DNA of 64,000 nt from an uncultured Rubrivirga sp. (GTDB lineage Bacteria > Actinomycetota > Actinomycetes > S36-B12). The notes beneath the pieces were generated by a model. That model saw only the letters and a program-made list of their open reading frames with translations. It made no database searches and was not told the DNA's origin. The stretch spans positions 15,060 through 79,059 of the forward strand of contig CAYLOH010000004.1 in assembly GCA_964385255.1 (NCBI GenBank), read 5' to 3'. The translations under genes were made by a program, and so were the position numbers. This document shows, piece by piece, positions 5,306 to 12,311 of the stretch; within the stretch, counting starts at the first letter, position 1, and the number at the start of each line of letters is the position of its first letter.

Positions 5306-6403
5306 ATGGTGAAGGGAAGTGAACCTGTGGCCCCAGGCCTTGAGTCCGCCGGCGGCAGTGAGGTGGGGCGAACGAGCTCCCCCTCGGGCAGCTCGGTGCT
5401 CACCTACAAGGACACATCGGTCCTCGCCGTTTCAGCGGTGGACGCCCCCGACATCGTGTCGTCGGCCCAGATCGACGAGTGGTTGGAGCCGGCCTACCAG
5501 GCCGCCGGACTGCATGGCGGAATGCTGGAGCAACTCGCGGGAATCGTGGAGCGTCGGTGGTGGCCTCAAGACGTCACCTTCGCCGATGCGGCTGCGATGG
5601 CCGGCGCAAAGGCTCTCGCGGAAGCGGGCGTTGATCCGGCGAACGTCGGTCTGCTTATCGACACTTCCGTATGCCGTGAGCGACTCGAACCCTCGGCCTC
5701 CGTTGACGTCCATCGTCAATTGGGTCTGTCCACTGCCTGCATCAACTTCGACCTCAGCAACGCTTGTCTGGGATTTCTGAGTGGCATGCAATTGGCGGCG
5801 ACCATGATCGACGCCGGCCAAATCGACTACGCCCTCATCGTGGATGGAGAGGGCAGTCGGCACACGCAGCAGGTGACCATCGAGAGACTGAACGCGTCCG
5901 GGGCGAGTCGAGAGGACATCTTGGAGAACTTCGCGACGTTCACGCTCGGATCGGGTGGAGCTGCGATGGTTCTCGGCCGTGCCTCGATGCACAGCGAAGG
6001 CCATCGGTTCGTTGGGGGAGTAACCCGCGCGGCCACCGAGCACAACCAGTTGTGCCTGGGCGACTTGGACGGGATGCGAACGGACAGTCGGGCACTTCTC
6101 GAAGCAGCGGTCGTGCTGGCTCGTGTGACGTGGGCCGATGCCGCTGAACATTTCGACTGGTCGGACCTGTCGATGTACGTCATCCACCAGGTGTCCAAGA
6201 TCCATACCGAGGCGATCGCCCGAGCACTGTGCATCGATGAGAAGCGAGTTCCCCAAACCTTCCCAACCCGGGGCAATATCGGGCCAGCATCGATCCCCTT
6301 CACGTTGGCACTGAACTCCGAAGGACTGACGTCTGGTGACCGCGTTGCATGCATGGGTATTGGATCGGGTTTGAACTCGGCCGTCATCGAAATCGAGTGG
6401 TGA
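5306..6403 (+). CDS. oleA: OleA: thiolase-fold acyl-CoA condensing enzyme (KAS III-like)
   Basis: Catalytic motifs DLSNACLGF (Cys), HQVS (His), GNIGPAS (Asn) and LEPS (Glu); first gene of the oleBC-oleD operon. Start uncertain. Confidence 0.85.
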   Translation: MVKGSEPVAPGLESAGGSEVGRTSSPSGSSVLTYKDTSVLAVSAVDAPDIVSSAQIDEWLEPAYQAAGLHGGMLEQLAGIVERRWWPQDVTFADAAAMAGAKALAEAGVDPANVGLLIDTSVCRERLEPSASVDVHRQLGLSTACINFDLSNACLGFLSGMQLAATMIDAGQIDYALIVDGEGSRHTQQVTIERLNASGASREDILENFATFTLGSGGAAMVLGRASMHSEGHRFVGGVTRAATEHNQLCLGDLDGMRTDSRALLEAAVVLARVTWADAAEHFDWSDLSMYVIHQVSKIHTEAIARALCIDEKRVPQTFPTRGNIGPASIPFTLALNSEGLTSGDRVACMGIGSGLNSAVIEIEW

Positions 6404-8934
6404 CTCCCGCTCGTACGCCGCCGGACTTGCCGGGCCTGCGACCGGAGTGGTCCCGCATTCTTTTCATCCCCGATCACGATGGTTCGGACATCGGCGTCCA
6501 TGTTCTCGAGGCAGGTTCACAGGACCCGGACTTCACGGTCGTGTGCGTCCATGGCAATCCAACGTGGTCGTACCTGTGGCGAGCGGTGATCGCCGAGGCT
6601 CCGGCGAACGTGCGAGTCATCGCGGTCGACCAGGTAGGTATGGGCTATTCGGCCAGGAGTCCGTTCCCCCGGCGATTGGCCGACCGTGTGGCCGATCTCG
6701 AAGCGATAGTCGAAACGGCGCGTGTTCGGGGTCGCGTCGTGCTCATGGCCCACGATTGGGGTGGGCCGATCGCGTTGGGTCTGGCCGAACGCCTCGTCGA
6801 ACGCAGCGACATTGACGTTGCCGCTCTGGTCCTAACGAACACCGCGATCCATCAACCCGAAAACAGCGCAGCACCGCTGCTCATCTCCGCCGCGCGTCTT
6901 CCTGGTGTCCTGCCCGCAGTCACGATCCGAACGCCGGCTTTCGTCGCTGCGACGACAGCTATTTCCTCGATGGACCGCGGCTCCGCGCATGCCCTACGAA
7001 GCCCTTACGCCCGTGCGGCCGATCGCCGATCCATCATGGAGTTCGTCGCTGATATCCCACTGTCTTCGTCGCATCCGTCCCGCAGCACGTTGGAATCGAT
7101 CGCAGCAGGCTTGCCGACGTTGTCGCAGATTCCGACGCTACTTGTGTGGGGAATGAAGGACCCTGTCTTCTCGCGACGTTACCTGGACGACCTGCGCCAT
7201 CGGATTCCGCACGCGGACGTCCATCAGTACGAGGATGCAGGACACCTTGTGCTCGAAGATCGACCGGATGCCATCGCCGACATCTGGCGGTGGGTTGCTG
7301 CAAAGAACGCTCGGGAAGTGCGCTCGACGATTCCGTCCGAGGAACCGGCGGACCTGCTCGCGAATCTTCGGTCTCTCGCAGCGTCGGGTGATGCGGCGGT
7401 GTGTGAACCGTTCGGCAATGGATGGCGAACCATCTCCTGGTCTCGCCTGGATGACCGGGTGCTTCGACTCTCGCGCGGCTTGTCGGCGCGTGGTGTGCGG
7501 GCCGGCGATCGTATCGCATTGTTGATGCCGCCGGGAGCCGATTTGCTTGCCGTGGTCTACGCAGCGTGGAGTATCGGAGCGGTCATCGTCGTTATCGATG
7601 CAGCCAACGGCCCTCGGGCATTGTTGCGCGCCCTGCGCGCAGCGCGCGTCGATCATGCAGTGGCGATCCGGCGTGCCCGCCCGGTCGTGGCGCTCCTGCG
7701 AATCCCTGGCGTCGTCATATGGGCCGATGAATTGGCCGACATCTCTCGCGTGCAGGCCGAGGAGGCAGATGACGGCGAGGTGTCGTCGAACGCCGACGCC
7801 GCAGTCGTCTTCACCTCGGGTGCGACGGGGCCGGCGAAGCCGGTTGCCTATACACGAGCGCGCATTGCCGCCACCCGCGATGTGTTGCTTGATCACTATG
7901 GATTCACGCGCTCTGACGTGCTCGTCGCGGCCTTCGCTCCCTGGGCGGTATTGGGACCGCTGCTGGGTATTGGTTCGGTTATTCCACGCATGGACGCGTC
8001 GCGACCGGGATCGCTGACTGCATCGGCATTGGCCGAGGCGATGGAACAGGCGGGGGGAACGGTGATGTGGATGTCCCCCGCGGCGCTGCGCTCGGTCCTC
8101 ACGGGAGCCCGACCCGGCACGGCAGACCGACGGCGATTGGTCGAGGCGAGTGCGGACCTGAGGTTTTTGCTCGTCGCCGGAGCGCCCGTGTCGCGCCGGC
8201 TGCTCCACGAGGCCAGGGAACTGTGGCCCCACGCGGACCTTCGAACGCCCTACGGCATGACCGAGGTGCTGCCGGCCACCGACGTCCAGGCGTCGGAGGT
8301 AATCGGCGAGTCCGCATCCCTCGGGGTTCTCGTCGGACGGCCTCTGCCATCGGTTGACGTCGCCATCGCCGCCCTCGACCACGACGGTGAGCCCAGTGAT
8401 GAACTCGAGCAGGTTCCCGGTGTTCTCGGAGAGGTCGCCATTCGCGCGCGTCACGCCAAGTCCCGGTATGACGGTCGGGCATTCGTCGAACTGCGATCTT
8501 CCCGGAATGCGGGGTGGCATCGCACCGGCGATGTGGGTCTCCTGGATGAGCGAGGTCGATTGTGGATCCAAGGTCGATTGAGCCACGTCATCACTGCCGA
8601 AGGTGGCCCGCTGGGTCCTGTGCCGTTGGAGCAACAAGTGGAGGCGTCCTTGGTCGATGCAGGTCACCTCGACGTCGTGGCAGCCGCCGTTGGCGTTGGC
8701 CCCGTGGGATGCCAGGTACCGGTGATCGTGTGCGCTCCCGCCGTCTCGGCGGGGTCGGACAGTGGTCTGCACATCGCCGATCGGGAGGTCTGTGACATCG
8801 TTCGACGGGTGCTGCCCGGCGTTGCGGCCGTGCTGTGGCGTTCGCGCATGCCTGTAGACATTCGACACGGTGCCAAGATCGATCGCTCGAAATTGTCCCG
8901 GGAAGCAGCAGCGTTCCTTGCGGGTAGGCAATGA
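6400..8934 (+). CDS. oleBC: OleBC fusion: haloalkane-dehalogenase-like beta-lactone decarboxylase plus AMP-dependent beta-lactone synthetase
   Basis: N-domain HGNPTWSYLWR and AHDWGG; C-domain FTSGATGPAK, TPYGMTE, WHRTGDVG and PVDIRHGAKIDR. The GTG overlaps the oleA stop (GTGA). Confidence 0.85.
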   Translation: MTPARTPPDLPGLRPEWSRILFIPDHDGSDIGVHVLEAGSQDPDFTVVCVHGNPTWSYLWRAVIAEAPANVRVIAVDQVGMGYSARSPFPRRLADRVADLEAIVETARVRGRVVLMAHDWGGPIALGLAERLVERSDIDVAALVLTNTAIHQPENSAAPLLISAARLPGVLPAVTIRTPAFVAATTAISSMDRGSAHALRSPYARAADRRSIMEFVADIPLSSSHPSRSTLESIAAGLPTLSQIPTLLVWGMKDPVFSRRYLDDLRHRIPHADVHQYEDAGHLVLEDRPDAIADIWRWVAAKNAREVRSTIPSEEPADLLANLRSLAASGDAAVCEPFGNGWRTISWSRLDDRVLRLSRGLSARGVRAGDRIALLMPPGADLLAVVYAAWSIGAVIVVIDAANGPRALLRALRAARVDHAVAIRRARPVVALLRIPGVVIWADELADISRVQAEEADDGEVSSNADAAVVFTSGATGPAKPVAYTRARIAATRDVLLDHYGFTRSDVLVAAFAPWAVLGPLLGIGSVIPRMDASRPGSLTASALAEAMEQAGGTVMWMSPAALRSVLTGARPGTADRRRLVEASADLRFLLVAGAPVSRRLLHEARELWPHADLRTPYGMTEVLPATDVQASEVIGESASLGVLVGRPLPSVDVAIAALDHDGEPSDELEQVPGVLGEVAIRARHAKSRYDGRAFVELRSSRNAGWHRTGDVGLLDERGRLWIQGRLSHVITAEGGPLGPVPLEQQVEASLVDAGHLDVVAAAVGVGPVGCQVPVIVCAPAVSAGSDSGLHIADREVCDIVRRVLPGVAAVLWRSRMPVDIRHGAKIDRSKLSREAAAFLAGRQ

Positions 8935-9920
8935 CGCGAGAGTGCGCAGGTCGTCTGCTGGTGACGGGGGGACGCGGACTGCTCGGGAATGCGGTCATCT
9001 CGACCGCTCGGGATCGCGGGTGGAACGTCGTTGCGCTGCAAAGGCATGCCTCCGGGCTAGAGGACGGCGATCGGGTCGTGGACGTTCTGGGAAGCGTCAC
9101 GGACCGGGCGAGTGTGGAACGTGCGATCACCGACTGCGACGCCGTCATCCACATGGCAGCGCGAGTGGGCATCGAGGGACGGTGGCGCGAGTTCGAGGAC
9201 GTCAACGTGAACGGCACACGTACGGTGCTCGATGCGGCCCGACGAGCCAATGTTCGTTCGTTCGTCTACGTGTCCTCACCCTCTGTGGCACATGCCGGAC
9301 GCGCTCTGGTGGGCGCGGGCGCCGACCCCGCCGACCCCCACAAGACTCGCGGTCACTACGCACGCTCGAAGGCGATCGCCGAGCTATTGGTCATGCAAAC
9401 GCCGGACCTGCCGGTCGTGGCACTTCGTCCGCATCTGGTCTGGGGCCCCGGAGACGAGCAGTTGATTGGTCGCATCGTGTCCCGCGCTCGAAGCGGGCGG
9501 CTTTTCGTGATCGATGGTGGTCGAGCCCTGATCGATACGACCTATATCGACAACGCCGCCGATGCGATCGTGCATGCGCTCGATAAGGCCAACGATGATG
9601 GCGTTCGCGGACGAGCCTTTGTCGTCAGCAACGGCGAACCTCGCCCGGTGAGGGAGATCGTGCAATCGATACTCGCGGCGGCGGGGGTGGACGGCTCCCT
9701 TCGGTCGATTCCCTTCGCCCCGGCCTTCTTCGCGGGTGCGGTGGGGGAGTGGGTCGGGGCCCTGTCGCATCGAGAGCCACTGGTGACGCGCTTCCTGGTC
9801 GAACAGCTCGCCACGGCACATTGGTTCGACCCTCGGCCGAGTTGGGAGGCCCTCGACTGGCGTCCACGTGTCGGGTTCGACGAGGGCATGCGTCGTGTGG
9901 CGGCGCACTTTGGGTCGTAG
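8931..9920 (+). CDS. oleD: OleD: NAD(P)H-dependent 2-alkyl-3-oxoalkanoate reductase (extended SDR)
   Basis: Motifs VTGGRGLLG, SSPSV, YARSK and LRPHLVWGPGD; ATGA overlap with oleBC. Confidence 0.85.
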   Translation: MTRECAGRLLVTGGRGLLGNAVISTARDRGWNVVALQRHASGLEDGDRVVDVLGSVTDRASVERAITDCDAVIHMAARVGIEGRWREFEDVNVNGTRTVLDAARRANVRSFVYVSSPSVAHAGRALVGAGADPADPHKTRGHYARSKAIAELLVMQTPDLPVVALRPHLVWGPGDEQLIGRIVSRARSGRLFVIDGGRALIDTTYIDNAADAIVHALDKANDDGVRGRAFVVSNGEPRPVREIVQSILAAAGVDGSLRSIPFAPAFFAGAVGEWVGALSHREPLVTRFLVEQLATAHWFDPRPSWEALDWRPRVGFDEGMRRVAAHFGS

Positions 9921-9975
9921 TCCGGCGTGGCGGGACGATCGCGCCCGCCTCGTGAGGTAGACAGTCCTACATAGA

Positions 9976-10012
9976 GCAAGGCCCCTCGAAGTATGAGTTC
10001 GAGGGGCCTTGC
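9976..10012. terminator. Strong hairpin, probably a bidirectional terminator
   Basis: Perfect 15-bp stem GCAAGGCCCCTCGAA / TTCGAGGGGCCTTGC with a 7-nt loop, lying between oleD and the converging candidate ncRNA. Confidence 0.75.
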
Positions 10013-10217
10013 CATGGGGCTACGAGGGTTTCACCCGGTTTCCCGGGGCCTTCGCGGTGTGTGCAGACCGCGCGGCTCGCTCCTGTCGCCAGGAACCGAA
10101 ACCTCTCGACACTCCTCGACCCGTCCCTTGCGACCACCCTCGCCAGCACTCGAGGGTCTTCGGGTCTAACCCGATAGGCCGCCGGTTTTCGGACCGACCC
10201 GCACCTTGCGGTGCGTT
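9976..10217 (-). ncRNA. Candidate highly structured non-coding RNA, family unassigned
   Basis: About nine back-to-back hairpins; the loops read as GNRA (GCAA, GCGA, GAAA) only on the minus strand. Promoter-like elements upstream, terminator downstream, and no credible ORF. Confidence 0.65.
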
Positions 10218-10223
10218 AGGACA

Positions 10224-10345
10224 GTTCTAACAGTGCTTGGCAAGCCGACACAAGGTTTTTCCAAAGATTTTTTCGTCAATGTAGCCACGCTGTTAACAAT
10301 GATTTTTTCTGGTCACTTCTTTCACTTTCATTCTGCGATTTTCTT
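10224..10345 (-). promoter_or_regulatory. AT-rich divergent promoter region; putative promoter of the candidate ncRNA
   Basis: Minus-strand TTGTGT (10248-10253), 18-nt spacer, TAGAAC (10224-10229), preceded by several A-tracts. Markedly AT-rich compared with its flanks. Confidence 0.45.
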
Positions 10346-10363
10346 GCCCGGTAGCGTGCGCGC

Positions 10364-11566
10364 GTGACCGGATTCGGCTTCCAGGTGGACTCCCGACTGC
10401 GCGATTCGCTCGGTCGAACCGGAGTCATCACGACTCCACGCGGCACCATCCGCACCCCCGCTTTCATCCCGGTCGGAACGAAGGCGACGGTCAAGACGGT
10501 CCTACCCGAGACCGTGGCCGAGTTGGGCGCCCAGGCGGTCCTGGCGAACGCGTACCACCTGTATCTGCAGCCCGGCGCCGACATCGTCGAAGCAGCCGGC
10601 GGTCTCGGCGCCTTCATGAATTGGTCCGGCCCCACGTTCACCGACAGCGGGGGATTCCAAGTGCTGTCTCTCGGTGTCGGATTCAAGAAGGTGCTGGCCA
10701 TGGACACAACGGGCAAGACGATGGATGACGTCGTCGCGGAGGGAAAGGATCGACTTGCCCACGTGGACGACGACGGCGTCACCTTCACCTCGCACCTGGA
10801 TGGGTCGCGACACCGATTCACGGCAGAGGTTTCCATGCAGGTGCAGCACGCGATCGGCGCCGACATCATCTTCGCATTTGACGAATGCACCACGTTGATG
10901 AACTCTCGCGAGTACCAACAACGTGCCATGGCTCGCACGCTGGCCTGGGCTAACCGTTGCCTGGAGGAGCATCGACGCTTGACGAACGCGCACCCAGCCC
11001 GCCCCTATCAGGCATTGTTCGGGGTCGTGCAAGGAGCACAGTTCGAGGATCTACGTCGGCAGGCTGCCCGGGAGATCGGTGCGCTGGATTTCGACGGTTT
11101 CGGTATCGGTGGAGCGATCGAGAAGGAACGCATGGGGCAGATCGTGGCGTGGGTGTCCTCGGAGCTACCCGAAGACAAGCCCCGGCACCTGCTCGGCATC
11201 GGAGAGCCGCGTGACTTCTTCACTGCCATAGAAGCGGGTGCTGACACGTTCGATTGCGTATCCCCCGCTCGGGTGGCTCGAAACGCAGCGCTCTACTCCT
11301 TCGATGGACGCTTCAACGTCACAGCGAGCGCCCATCGCCGCGCCTTCGAGCCGATCGACGCGGAGTGCAGCTGCTACACCTGTCGCCATTACACACGGGC
11401 CTACCTGCACCACGCGTTCAAGGCCAAGGAGTCGATCGCGTCCACGCTGGCGACCATCCACAACGAGCACTTCATCGTCTCGCTGGTAGATCGAATCAGG
11501 TCGTCCATCGATGACGGCACCTACGAAGAATTCCGGGACGAGTTCCTCGGTAGGTATCCGGCTTAG
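10364..11566 (+). CDS. tgt: tRNA-guanine transglycosylase
   Basis: Motifs TPAFIPVGT, LANAYHL, TDSGGFQV, DECT, GVVQG, HLLGIG, DTFDCV, CSCYTC (Zn) and TIHN; TAGCGT -10 six nt before the GTG. Confidence 0.96.
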   Translation: MTGFGFQVDSRLRDSLGRTGVITTPRGTIRTPAFIPVGTKATVKTVLPETVAELGAQAVLANAYHLYLQPGADIVEAAGGLGAFMNWSGPTFTDSGGFQVLSLGVGFKKVLAMDTTGKTMDDVVAEGKDRLAHVDDDGVTFTSHLDGSRHRFTAEVSMQVQHAIGADIIFAFDECTTLMNSREYQQRAMARTLAWANRCLEEHRRLTNAHPARPYQALFGVVQGAQFEDLRRQAAREIGALDFDGFGIGGAIEKERMGQIVAWVSSELPEDKPRHLLGIGEPRDFFTAIEAGADTFDCVSPARVARNAALYSFDGRFNVTASAHRRAFEPIDAECSCYTCRHYTRAYLHHAFKAKESIASTLATIHNEHFIVSLVDRIRSSIDDGTYEEFRDEFLGRYPA

Positions 11567-12238: not shown

Positions 12239-12311
12239 CGCCCCCGGCAGGATTCGAACCTGCGGCCTTCGGTACCGGAAACCGGCGCTCTATCCCCTGA
12301 GCTACGGGGGC
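12239..12311 (-). tRNA. tRNA-Arg(CCG)
   Basis: Cloverleaf GCCCCCG TA GCTC AGGGGATA GAGC G CCGGT TTCCGGT ACCGA AGGCC GCAGG TTCGAAT CCTGC CGGGGGC G; CCA is not encoded. Confidence 0.96.

Follow-up and report, generated by a model that had tools for sequence, protein, structure and literature searches.

The bacterial RNAs with which the element described here can best be compared are 6S RNA, Ms1, CoRP RNA, and the raiA motif RNA. Bacillus has two 6S RNAs, 6S-1 and 6S-2. The raiA motif RNA, which is approximately 200 to 250 nucleotides (nt) long, of unknown function, and present in Actinobacteria, is an orphan structured class like OLE. In the literature, Ms1 is defined by its binding to the core of RNA polymerase (RNAP), by a fold that is a rod with a bubble, and by the position of its gene next to one for an HAD-IB hydrolase, where 6C RNA lies one gene away (PMC9130861, PMC4191392, PMC6582537, PMC9569102). 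The CoRP RNA of Corynebacterium glutamicum is 516 nt long; its gene is flanked by tRNA genes, and the RNA is cut into two pieces (PMC11077062). That paper, from the laboratory that discovered Ms1 and CoRP, also proposes that in every species one abundant RNA is associated with RNAP and that unknown classes exist where 6S RNA and Ms1 are missing. We analyzed a 64,000-nt stretch of DNA, here called the window, from an uncultured Rubrivirga sp. (GTDB lineage Bacteria; Actinomycetota; Actinomycetes; S36-B12; assembly GCA_964385255.1, contig CAYLOH010000004.1, positions 15,060 to 79,059 of the forward strand). Within a gap of 443 nt between two plus-strand genes, a 3-beta-HSD/epimerase-family (SDR) gene and tgt, the minus strand at 9967-10217 almost certainly carries a real, standalone small RNA (sRNA) gene of a new family. 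This family has not been described previously, has no Rfam family, and occurs in Actinobacteria of fresh water and soil; it is possibly the missing counterpart to the RNAP-binding RNAs of other bacteria.

Fold, promoter, and ends of the RNA

The minus strand of 9976-10260 gave a predicted folding energy of -149.8 kcal/mol, compared to -113.9 +/- 5.2 kcal/mol for shuffled versions (z = -6.9), and none of 200 shuffles folded as well. For 19 homologs, RNAalifold produced a consensus of 71 pairs in 13 helices, in which standard pairs made up 97.0% of 1,345 pair cells and 25 of the 71 pairs had compensatory (double) changes. None of 500 shuffles matched the family alignment on any of five measures, and when the partners were slid by 1 to 3 columns, only 35 to 47% of the cells paired. 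A preliminary description of this locus, made from the DNA letters without database searches, had put forward covariation of homologs as a check on an RNA gene, and the homologs did covary.

The consensus fold consists of a 5' hairpin, two multibranch domains, a kissing loop, and a terminator, with three GNRA loops (Table 1), and loop and junction sequences are invariant. Compensatory changes were found in two pairs each of P2, P4, P5, and P6 and in four of the five pairs of both P7 and P9. The pairing of CGAGAGGTTTC with GAAACCCTCG, which had been proposed to close a junction, forms with differing letters in all 18 sequences tested (the 19-row alignment, with a row containing N skipped), and its duplex energies were -13 to -23 kcal/mol versus -6 to -12.5 kcal/mol for shuffles. 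This pairing is the inner part of the long imperfect helix that closes domain II, a helix whose only internal loop is small and varies in size. Nine local hairpins had been drawn in the preliminary description. Six of them are consensus helices (10201-10214, P1; 10160-10174, P5; 10136-10157, P6; 10079-10096, P8/P9; 10053-10072, P11; and 10034-10047, P12), whereas those at 10181-10198, 10123-10134, and 10106-10119 are not conserved, and their bases instead form the long-range helices P2 to P4 and P7.

The contact between the P6 and P11 loops was followed with a covariance model built from 33 sequences, to which the matches in 78 loci were aligned, and pairs were counted in the 57 distinct rows that had letters at all twelve positions. 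At least five of the six pairs formed in all 57 rows, and all six formed in 12 rows, with 19 different letter combinations; variants included AUGCUG/CAGCAU, UUGCUG/CGGCAA, AUGCUA/UAGCAU, GUGACG/CGUCAC, and GUGCCA/UGGCAC. Of 364 cells, 85.4% were paired, and double changes occurred in four of the six pairs. This paired share was reached by none of 500 shuffles, and slid versions gave 9 to 60%. At the equivalent loops, six of seven of the shorter "type B" RNAs of Jatrophihabitantaceae had a perfect 6-mer pair (GUGACG/CGUCAC, GUGGCG/CGCCAC, or GUAACG/CGUUAC), and two of three "type D" RNAs had GUGUCA/UGACAC. The covariation of this loop contact indicates that the two domains are docked, and because docked domains are combined with three GNRA loops, the modeled RNA looks globular rather than rod-like.

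On the minus-strand consensus of the 19 homologs, 113 cells held G-U and 12 held A-C, a comparison that is biased, since the structure was predicted on the minus strand, and that nonetheless has a large margin. The excess of G-U places the RNA on the minus strand, as the preliminary description had done. It also bears on the explanation that the element acts in cis, either on the plus strand, as leader or riboswitch for tgt, or simply as the bidirectional terminator of the SDR gene. The position 146 nt upstream of tgt, the tgt linkage that is common in one subtype, and the plus strand, which also folds well (z = -4.7), would fit such an element. Together with the G-U excess, the promoter and U-tail on the minus strand, the many loci that have no tgt or SDR gene, and the lack of a match to preQ1 or any other riboswitch make a cis-acting role extremely improbable.

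Upstream of the structured part, the alignment contains conserved sequence blocks and no conserved pairing, and what had been noted as an A-tract-rich, promoter-like region is a conserved promoter-like block. Its A/T-rich part is kept in the genus alignment, with A/T tracts at the same place in other lineages, and may work as an UP element. All 19 sequences carry CTTGTG unchanged, and in every RNA type TTGnnn stands 18 nt upstream of the -10 motif; at the -10 region, CTGTT and one A are invariant within an otherwise variable A/T-rich stretch, and the -10-like motif is the same in types A, B, and D. All subtypes have TTGnnn, a spacer of 17 to 19 nt (18 nt in the window), TA(G/C)A(A/C)nT, and then, approximately 7 nt further on, the conserved 5' hairpin. 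A generic promoter scan picked another, weaker hexamer pair. The conserved motifs suggest that a sigma-A-type promoter drives the RNA gene, and from the promoter spacing, transcription likely starts at A10217 or A10216, the former being the start given in the preliminary description.

At the 3' end, P13 is 100% paired; in both the 19- and the 33-sequence alignment, its 11 inner pairs (of 16) and its loop CUCAUAC show no variation, and the hairpin is nearly invariant across orders. A terminator stem had been expected here and is present, with 16 base pairs (bp) rather than the proposed 15. Homology to relatives starts and stops at the limits of the RNA gene. Both blastn and a regular expression found one copy of the element in the 2.06-Mb assembly of its own genome (103 contigs, 93.8% complete, 63.7% G+C), and it is therefore no dispersed repeat; the REP/MITE-like repeat that had been named as the alternative to an RNA gene was ruled out by this single copy. 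The features generally expected of an independent sRNA gene, namely, a promoter block, a terminator, covariation, and contigs in RNA libraries (see below), are all present, and the claim that the RNA stands alone is upheld by its own promoter and terminator and by flanks that differ between lineages.

Table 1. Coordinates in the window of the RNA gene, its parts, and the adjacent genes
Feature	Position	Strand	Details
RNA gene	9967-10217	-	approximately 245 to 250 nt; 5' end predicted at A10217 or A10216; 3' end in U-rich tail after terminator
A/T-rich tract (UP-element-like)	10256-10283	-	upstream of -35, in the 146-nt spacer shared with divergent tgt
-35-like hexamer TTGTGT	10248-10253	-	family consensus TTGnnn within CCCTTG
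-10-like hexamer TAGAAC, preceded by TGT	10224-10229	-	family consensus GTAGAA(C/A)T
P1, 5' hairpin CGCACC-GCAA-GGUGCG	10200-10215	-	GNRA loop; 6 pairs, 98.2% of cells paired, nearly invariant
Domain I	10117-10196	-	long-range helices P2 to P4 around hairpins P5 (10160-10174) and P6 (10136-10157)
P6 loop GUGCUG	10144-10149	-	5' half of kissing contact; complementary to 10061-10066
Domain II	10016-10115	-	imperfect long closing helix P7/P7b (approximately 10097-10115 with 10016-10033) around a hairpin junction
P8/P9 hairpin of domain II	10079-10096	-	GNRA loop
P10/P11 hairpin of domain II	10048-10076	-	
P11 loop CUGCAC	10061-10066	-	3' half of kissing contact; complementary to P6 loop
P12 hairpin of domain II	10034-10047	-	GNRA loop
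P13 terminator hairpin	9975-10013	-	16 bp, 7-nt loop CUCAUAC; U-rich tail 9967-9974
Fused alpha/beta-hydrolase and AMP-dependent ligase gene	6349-8934		861 amino acids; precedes SDR gene, overlap of 4 nt
3-beta-HSD/epimerase-family (SDR) gene	8931-9920	+	Pfam E = 4.9e-36
tgt	10364-11566	+	Pfam TGT E = 1.2e-128

Occurrence in RNA libraries and related genomes

Twenty RNA runs from 20 studies, representing river, sediment, mangrove, root, sea water, and fresh water habitats, contained 6 to 9% of the sampled words of window positions 9600-10700. Four of these runs were aligned to the window at a likeness of at least 85%. All six contigs, which came from all four runs, were 62 to 200 nt long, 95 to 99% alike, and confined to 10011-10209, the body of the RNA; their sequences are those of close relatives and not of this strain. 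No contig from the four runs extended to tgt or the SDR gene, which is uninformative on the expression of those genes. Mean word depths of 212 to 295 were found in one riverine run. One contig stops at 10209, abutting AGATCGGAAGAGCACACGTCT, which we take to be the Illumina read-1 adapter, and the insert therefore ended 7 to 8 nt from the predicted start. If this library was dUTP stranded, read 1 would lie on the plus strand, which would point to an RNA from the minus strand. Of the discrete minus-strand transcript anticipated in the preliminary description, the RNA libraries show contigs confined to the RNA body, from which strand and exact ends cannot be read.

In lakes and rivers, few bacteria are more numerous than Nanopelagicales-type Actinobacteria. 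The RNA family was found in these freshwater bacteria as well as in Jatrophihabitantaceae and some Intrasporangiaceae. When 61 related genomes were searched at the DNA level, the element was detected in 18 of the 19 genomes of the genus, mostly at full length and with 77 to 93% identity, in 28 of the family's 36 other genomes, and in two of four genomes of one further family; in the other eight families of the same order (f2-f9), this search gave no match. The covariance model yielded 55 full-length matches of at least 94 bits in 54 of the 78 loci given, and a sequence profile found approximately 75 loci with near full-length homologs. When one genome per species was scanned for the exact pattern of the P13 hairpin (the same 24 to 29 nt), at least 118 stretches contained it, and among the matches listed these were mostly metagenome-assembled genomes (MAGs) labeled Nanopelagicales, Actinomycetota, or Jatrophihabitantaceae. 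The cultured carriers of the hairpin were Pedococcus, Phycicoccus, Knoellia (K. koreensis), and Longivirga (L. aurantiaca). Outside the family to which the window belongs, the hairpin has a patchy distribution: it was present in 4 of 401 genomes of the Mycobacteriales, the order that holds Jatrophihabitantaceae and Mycobacterium, and in 2 of 121 genomes of the order of Pedococcus.

At some loci the body is different, and only the promoter type and three elements (the 5' hairpin, the kissing-loop pair, and the 3' hairpin) are shared. In Pedococcus, Knoellia, and Phycicoccus (loci L084, L108, L032, and L049), the promoter motif lies 400 to 800 nt upstream of the hairpin, indicating that the RNAs of these genera are longer, and duplication of hairpin modules makes their length vary. 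The bodies at these four loci are composed of repeated similar hairpin modules, e.g., the GCCGTCACCTCGGTGACGAC and CCGCACGTGGG repeats. Across the family, the length ranges from approximately 185 to 770 nt, and the structural core is kept. This range has to be set against the explanation that the RNA is a regulatory sRNA acting by base pairing, whose conserved unpaired stretches (e.g., UCGAGGA, GCGAGC, and the loop CUCAUAC) would pair with mRNAs. Such an RNA would agree with a standalone gene that has its own promoter and terminator and with the presence of several short conserved unpaired stretches. However, an RNA of 245 nt that is nearly all paired, has conserved tertiary contacts, and retains its core through such changes in length is unlike typical seed-type sRNAs, and we consider this explanation rather unlikely.

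Some genomes of the genus have a second, diverged copy of the RNA. The copy in G015 (L182:411-663, minus strand) is full length and scores 188 bits, that in G002 (L181:479-711, plus strand) is cut by a contig end and scores 168 bits, and a further one lies in G001 (L183:433-462). In the G015 paralog, the hairpin stem has two compensatory changes (CCCAAA/UUUGGG) while the loop CUCAUAC is unchanged, and selection therefore acts on the sequence of the loop and on the stem as a structure.

Several loci depart from the usual arrangement. The hairpin occurs twice within 130 to 800 nt at L037 (5356 and 5621), L081 (4674 and 4871), L125 (7043 and 7178), and L133 (394 and 1190), which are Jatrophihabitantaceae and related loci. 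At L037 and L145, the second unit resembles a minigene, in which a promoter-like motif and ACCGCAC, the 5' start, lead directly into the hairpin; it is perhaps a paralog in tandem or a derivative formed by deletion. At L035, L043, and L050, a hairpin variant with the loop CUCAUGC follows an apparent coding sequence, with no recognizable promoter within 1.5 kb upstream, and may be a terminator only or part of a longer or different RNA. The hairpin was also seen in MAGs labeled Candidatus Binatia (L071, L093, and L098), and the whole RNA with tgt synteny was seen in L076 and L077, which are labeled Rubrivirga, and in L102, which is labeled Bifidobacteriaceae. Errors of binning or labeling are the likely causes of these odd taxon assignments, with a hairpin arising by chance or independently as the other likely cause for the Binatia records.

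Relation to known RNAs and possible partners

At gathering scores, the only Rfam 15 match in the 64-kb window was a tRNA at 12239-12311. At E <= 10, none of the Rfam 15 families, including raiA, OLE, 6C, SRP, RNase P, tmRNA, and the riboswitches, matched 9800-10450, in agreement with the earlier view that the RNA lies outside the known families, and at E <= 1 eight homologous loci had no Rfam match at the position of the RNA. The hairpin string was not found in the searchable literature, and topical literature searches returned nothing relevant, with subscription journals and supplements outside their scope. For 6S RNA, RF00013 had no match in the genome of the window at E <= 10 and none in 31 related genomes at E <= 0.01; control genomes did match. 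An identity with 6S RNA was rejected because of this result and because the consensus fold does not form the rod and central bubble of 6S RNA. The RNA family is longer than typical 6S RNA and is not rod-shaped, and, as with 6S RNA, there are paralogs in some genomes; by analogy, a role as an abundant binder of the transcription machinery is possible for it. The family resembles the raiA motif RNA in its length of approximately 200 to 250 nt, its many conserved helices, its GNRA loops, and a tertiary contact of the pseudoknot type. Unlike raiA, it has no Rfam match at E <= 10, lies in another gene context, and has an invariant terminator hairpin of its own. 6C RNA was sought as a marker of the Ms1 locus; its sole candidate (RF01066) in the genome, at C4:7418-7481 (plus strand), scored 26.6 bits, below the cutoff of 47, and was not used; it is on the same contig, approximately 7.6 kb before the start of the window and approximately 17.6 kb from the RNA. 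With only this below-cutoff candidate, 6C RNA may be missing or very diverged in the lineage.

Ms1 (M. smegmatis Ms1, M. tuberculosis MTS2823, and S. coelicolor scr3559) resembles the RNA family in being a standalone structured actinobacterial RNA of 230 to 300 nt with a sigma-A-like promoter, an intrinsic terminator, and an expected abundance in genomes without 6S RNA. Reference Ms1 loci from six mycobacterial genomes and one Streptomyces genome were recovered by means of primer sequences printed in PMC4191392 and PMC9130861. The six mycobacterial loci, of approximately 300 nt, directly follow an HAD-IB gene that is 56 to 57% identical to one of those in the genome of the window, and an HAD-IB gene was present at all six mycobacterial loci and the one Streptomyces locus (55 to 57% identity). 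By comparison, none of loci L002-L148 had an HAD-IB homolog at E <= 1e-8. The genome of the window has three HAD-IB genes, which are on other contigs and have adjacent gaps of 115 nt or less, and in Longivirga there is no gap after the HAD ortholog, with the hairpin RNA elsewhere in the genome. Searches with nhmmer --max in both directions found no similarity between the RNA family and Ms1. The family profile gave a best E of 7.9 on the Ms1 loci; the seven-sequence Ms1 profile gave no match at E <= 1 in L002-L148, and its one match in the genome of the window (E = 0.042) lies inside an open reading frame of 696 amino acids. Two motifs common to all seven Ms1 loci, GGCACCCACGCG and ACGCTTGGTAACCGG, were not found in the RNA family. 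The second of these motifs (ACGCTTGGTARCCGG), which is exact in the Streptomyces control, was absent from the genome of the window, G061, and G062 and present only at noise level in G063. The 3' hairpin of the family differs from that of Ms1, as does the fold, which in Ms1 is a rod with a central bubble and here has two branched domains and a kissing loop. The -10 regions are alike (GTAGAAnT in the RNA family, GGGTACAAAG in mycobacteria, and GAGTACAAAT in Streptomyces), and this likeness is generic for sigma-A promoters. With no profile match, none of the motifs, no HAD-IB neighbor, and a different fold, membership in Ms1 is not supported, and the Ms1/scr3559 homology that the preliminary description had proposed to check was not found.

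These comparisons leave the explanation that the RNA is a true Ms1 homolog that has diverged very far and been relocated an improbable one. It would be in line with the similar kind of gene, size range, and -10 region and with a flank that is an oxidoreductase gene, a generic word in the Ms1 synteny given in PMC9130861. That paper lists Pedococcus, Phycicoccus, and Knoellia as carriers of Ms1, and its predicted loci in these genera may be those found here. Set against this are the lack of similarity by nhmmer --max in either direction and of an Rfam match at E <= 10, the absent motifs, the different 3' hairpin, the lack of an HAD-IB gene at any of L002-L148, and the separation of HAD ortholog and hairpin RNA in Longivirga. 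Two further ideas concerning Ms1 were discarded. A by-eye likeness of the region of the anti-Ms1 oligonucleotide to GGUCGGUCCGAAAACCGGCGGCC was dropped on the full Ms1 sequences, since that region lies in the middle of Ms1. The invariant hairpin as a cause of the wide BLAST reach of a Cellulomonas "Ms1" match in PMC9130861 was rejected because only 2 of 121 genomes of the Pedococcus order have the hairpin.

By analogy with 6S, Ms1, and CoRP, the RNA may bind RNAP as their functional counterpart, a reading that we put forward tentatively. The preliminary description had likewise suggested an RNAP-binding RNA, or a protein sponge, as possible roles. The gene specifies a probably abundant RNA of approximately 245 nt that would act in trans. 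A putative sigma-A-type promoter with an A/T tract drives it, an intrinsic terminator ends it, and it folds compactly into a 5' GNRA hairpin and two multihelix domains locked by the 6-bp kissing contact. We infer that it would work by binding a protein, for which RNAP would be the likeliest single partner, and the RNA would sequester or buffer the enzyme. It would be a counterpart by analogy and not by descent from Ms1. The RNA could then, equally tentatively, represent a fourth class of abundant RNAP-associated RNA after 6S, Ms1, and CoRP, with a globular kissing-loop fold and not a mimic of an open promoter, in which the hairpin loop CUCAUAC would be the contact read by RNAP or by a partner protein. 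The support for binding to RNAP is circumstantial: 6S was not found in the genome or in 31 related genomes, Ms1 was not found, paralogs occur in some genomes, as 6S-1 and 6S-2 do in Bacillus, and none of the 4 hairpin genomes was among the 29 with the Ms1 oligonucleotide pattern in the 401 Mycobacteriales genomes. The proposal of unknown classes in PMC11077062 points the same way. CoRP (PMC11077062) is likewise a lineage-restricted actinobacterial RNA where neither 6S nor Ms1 exists and is a precedent for a lineage having a class of its own; the RNA family is set apart from it by that published description and not by sequence.

Several points weigh against RNAP as the partner. With an Ms1 oligonucleotide pattern that picks up close relatives of M. 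smegmatis alone, and with compared genomes that are kin, the co-occurrence test is weak. Strand, ends, and level cannot be read from the contigs, and DNA may be present in the RNA libraries. Even the hairpin is missing from many families of the order to which the window belongs (no matches in f2-f9) and from all but 2 of the 121 genomes in the Pedococcus order; the RNA is therefore not found everywhere that 6S and Ms1 are absent. A long rod with a central bubble defines both 6S RNA and Ms1 (PMC4191392), and the fold of the RNA family differs from it. As modeled, the fold of the family is more reminiscent of globular RNAs, for example, ribozymes, ligand binders, or scaffolds of ribonucleoproteins (RNPs).

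A globular RNA with a partner other than RNAP, i.e., an RNP component or a trans-acting ligand binder or ribozyme comparable to the orphans raiA and OLE, is accordingly a serious possibility, though also short of even odds; RNAP and another protein or ligand partner are about equally likely. The invariant 3' hairpin loop would then be an element for protein recognition or stability. Three GNRA tetraloops, multihelix junctions, and a covarying kissing loop in a structure that is not rod-like fit such an RNA, as do the invariant loops and junctions and a hairpin loop that stays constant even where its stem covaries. On the other side, no gene for a partner protein is linked to the RNA and the flanks vary between lineages, there is no Rfam match to raiA, OLE, or others, and no ligand or reaction can be named. 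A bolder alternative is that the RNA may have a catalytic or ligand-binding function of its own outside the known classes.

If the reading as an RNAP-binding RNA is true, a fourth RNAP-associated class would be carried by the most abundant freshwater Actinobacteria. The family is a concrete candidate for the unknown RNAP-bound classes proposed in PMC11077062. An alignment, a covariance model, a tested secondary structure, and a covarying tertiary contact are in place for it, and it has cultured carriers. Whatever its function, it is a well-supported new class of structured RNA with an unusually invariant 3' hairpin.

Gene neighborhood

The RNA gene has no constant neighbor, and its flanks vary by lineage (oleD and tgt, GT2, and others), which fits a trans-acting RNA. 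The order in the subtype of the window is oleBC, oleD, the RNA (convergent with oleD), tgt (divergent from the RNA), a yhhQ-like gene, and a brkB-like gene, and this order is common and not universal. In Intrasporangiaceae, a GT2 glycosyltransferase gene is the next after the RNA. The label oleD for the SDR gene is plausible, because the gene comes after the fused alpha/beta-hydrolase and AMP-ligase gene. Window positions 6349-9920 resemble an oleBC-oleD cluster for olefin or lipid synthesis, and the linkage of this region to the RNA is kept in many loci.

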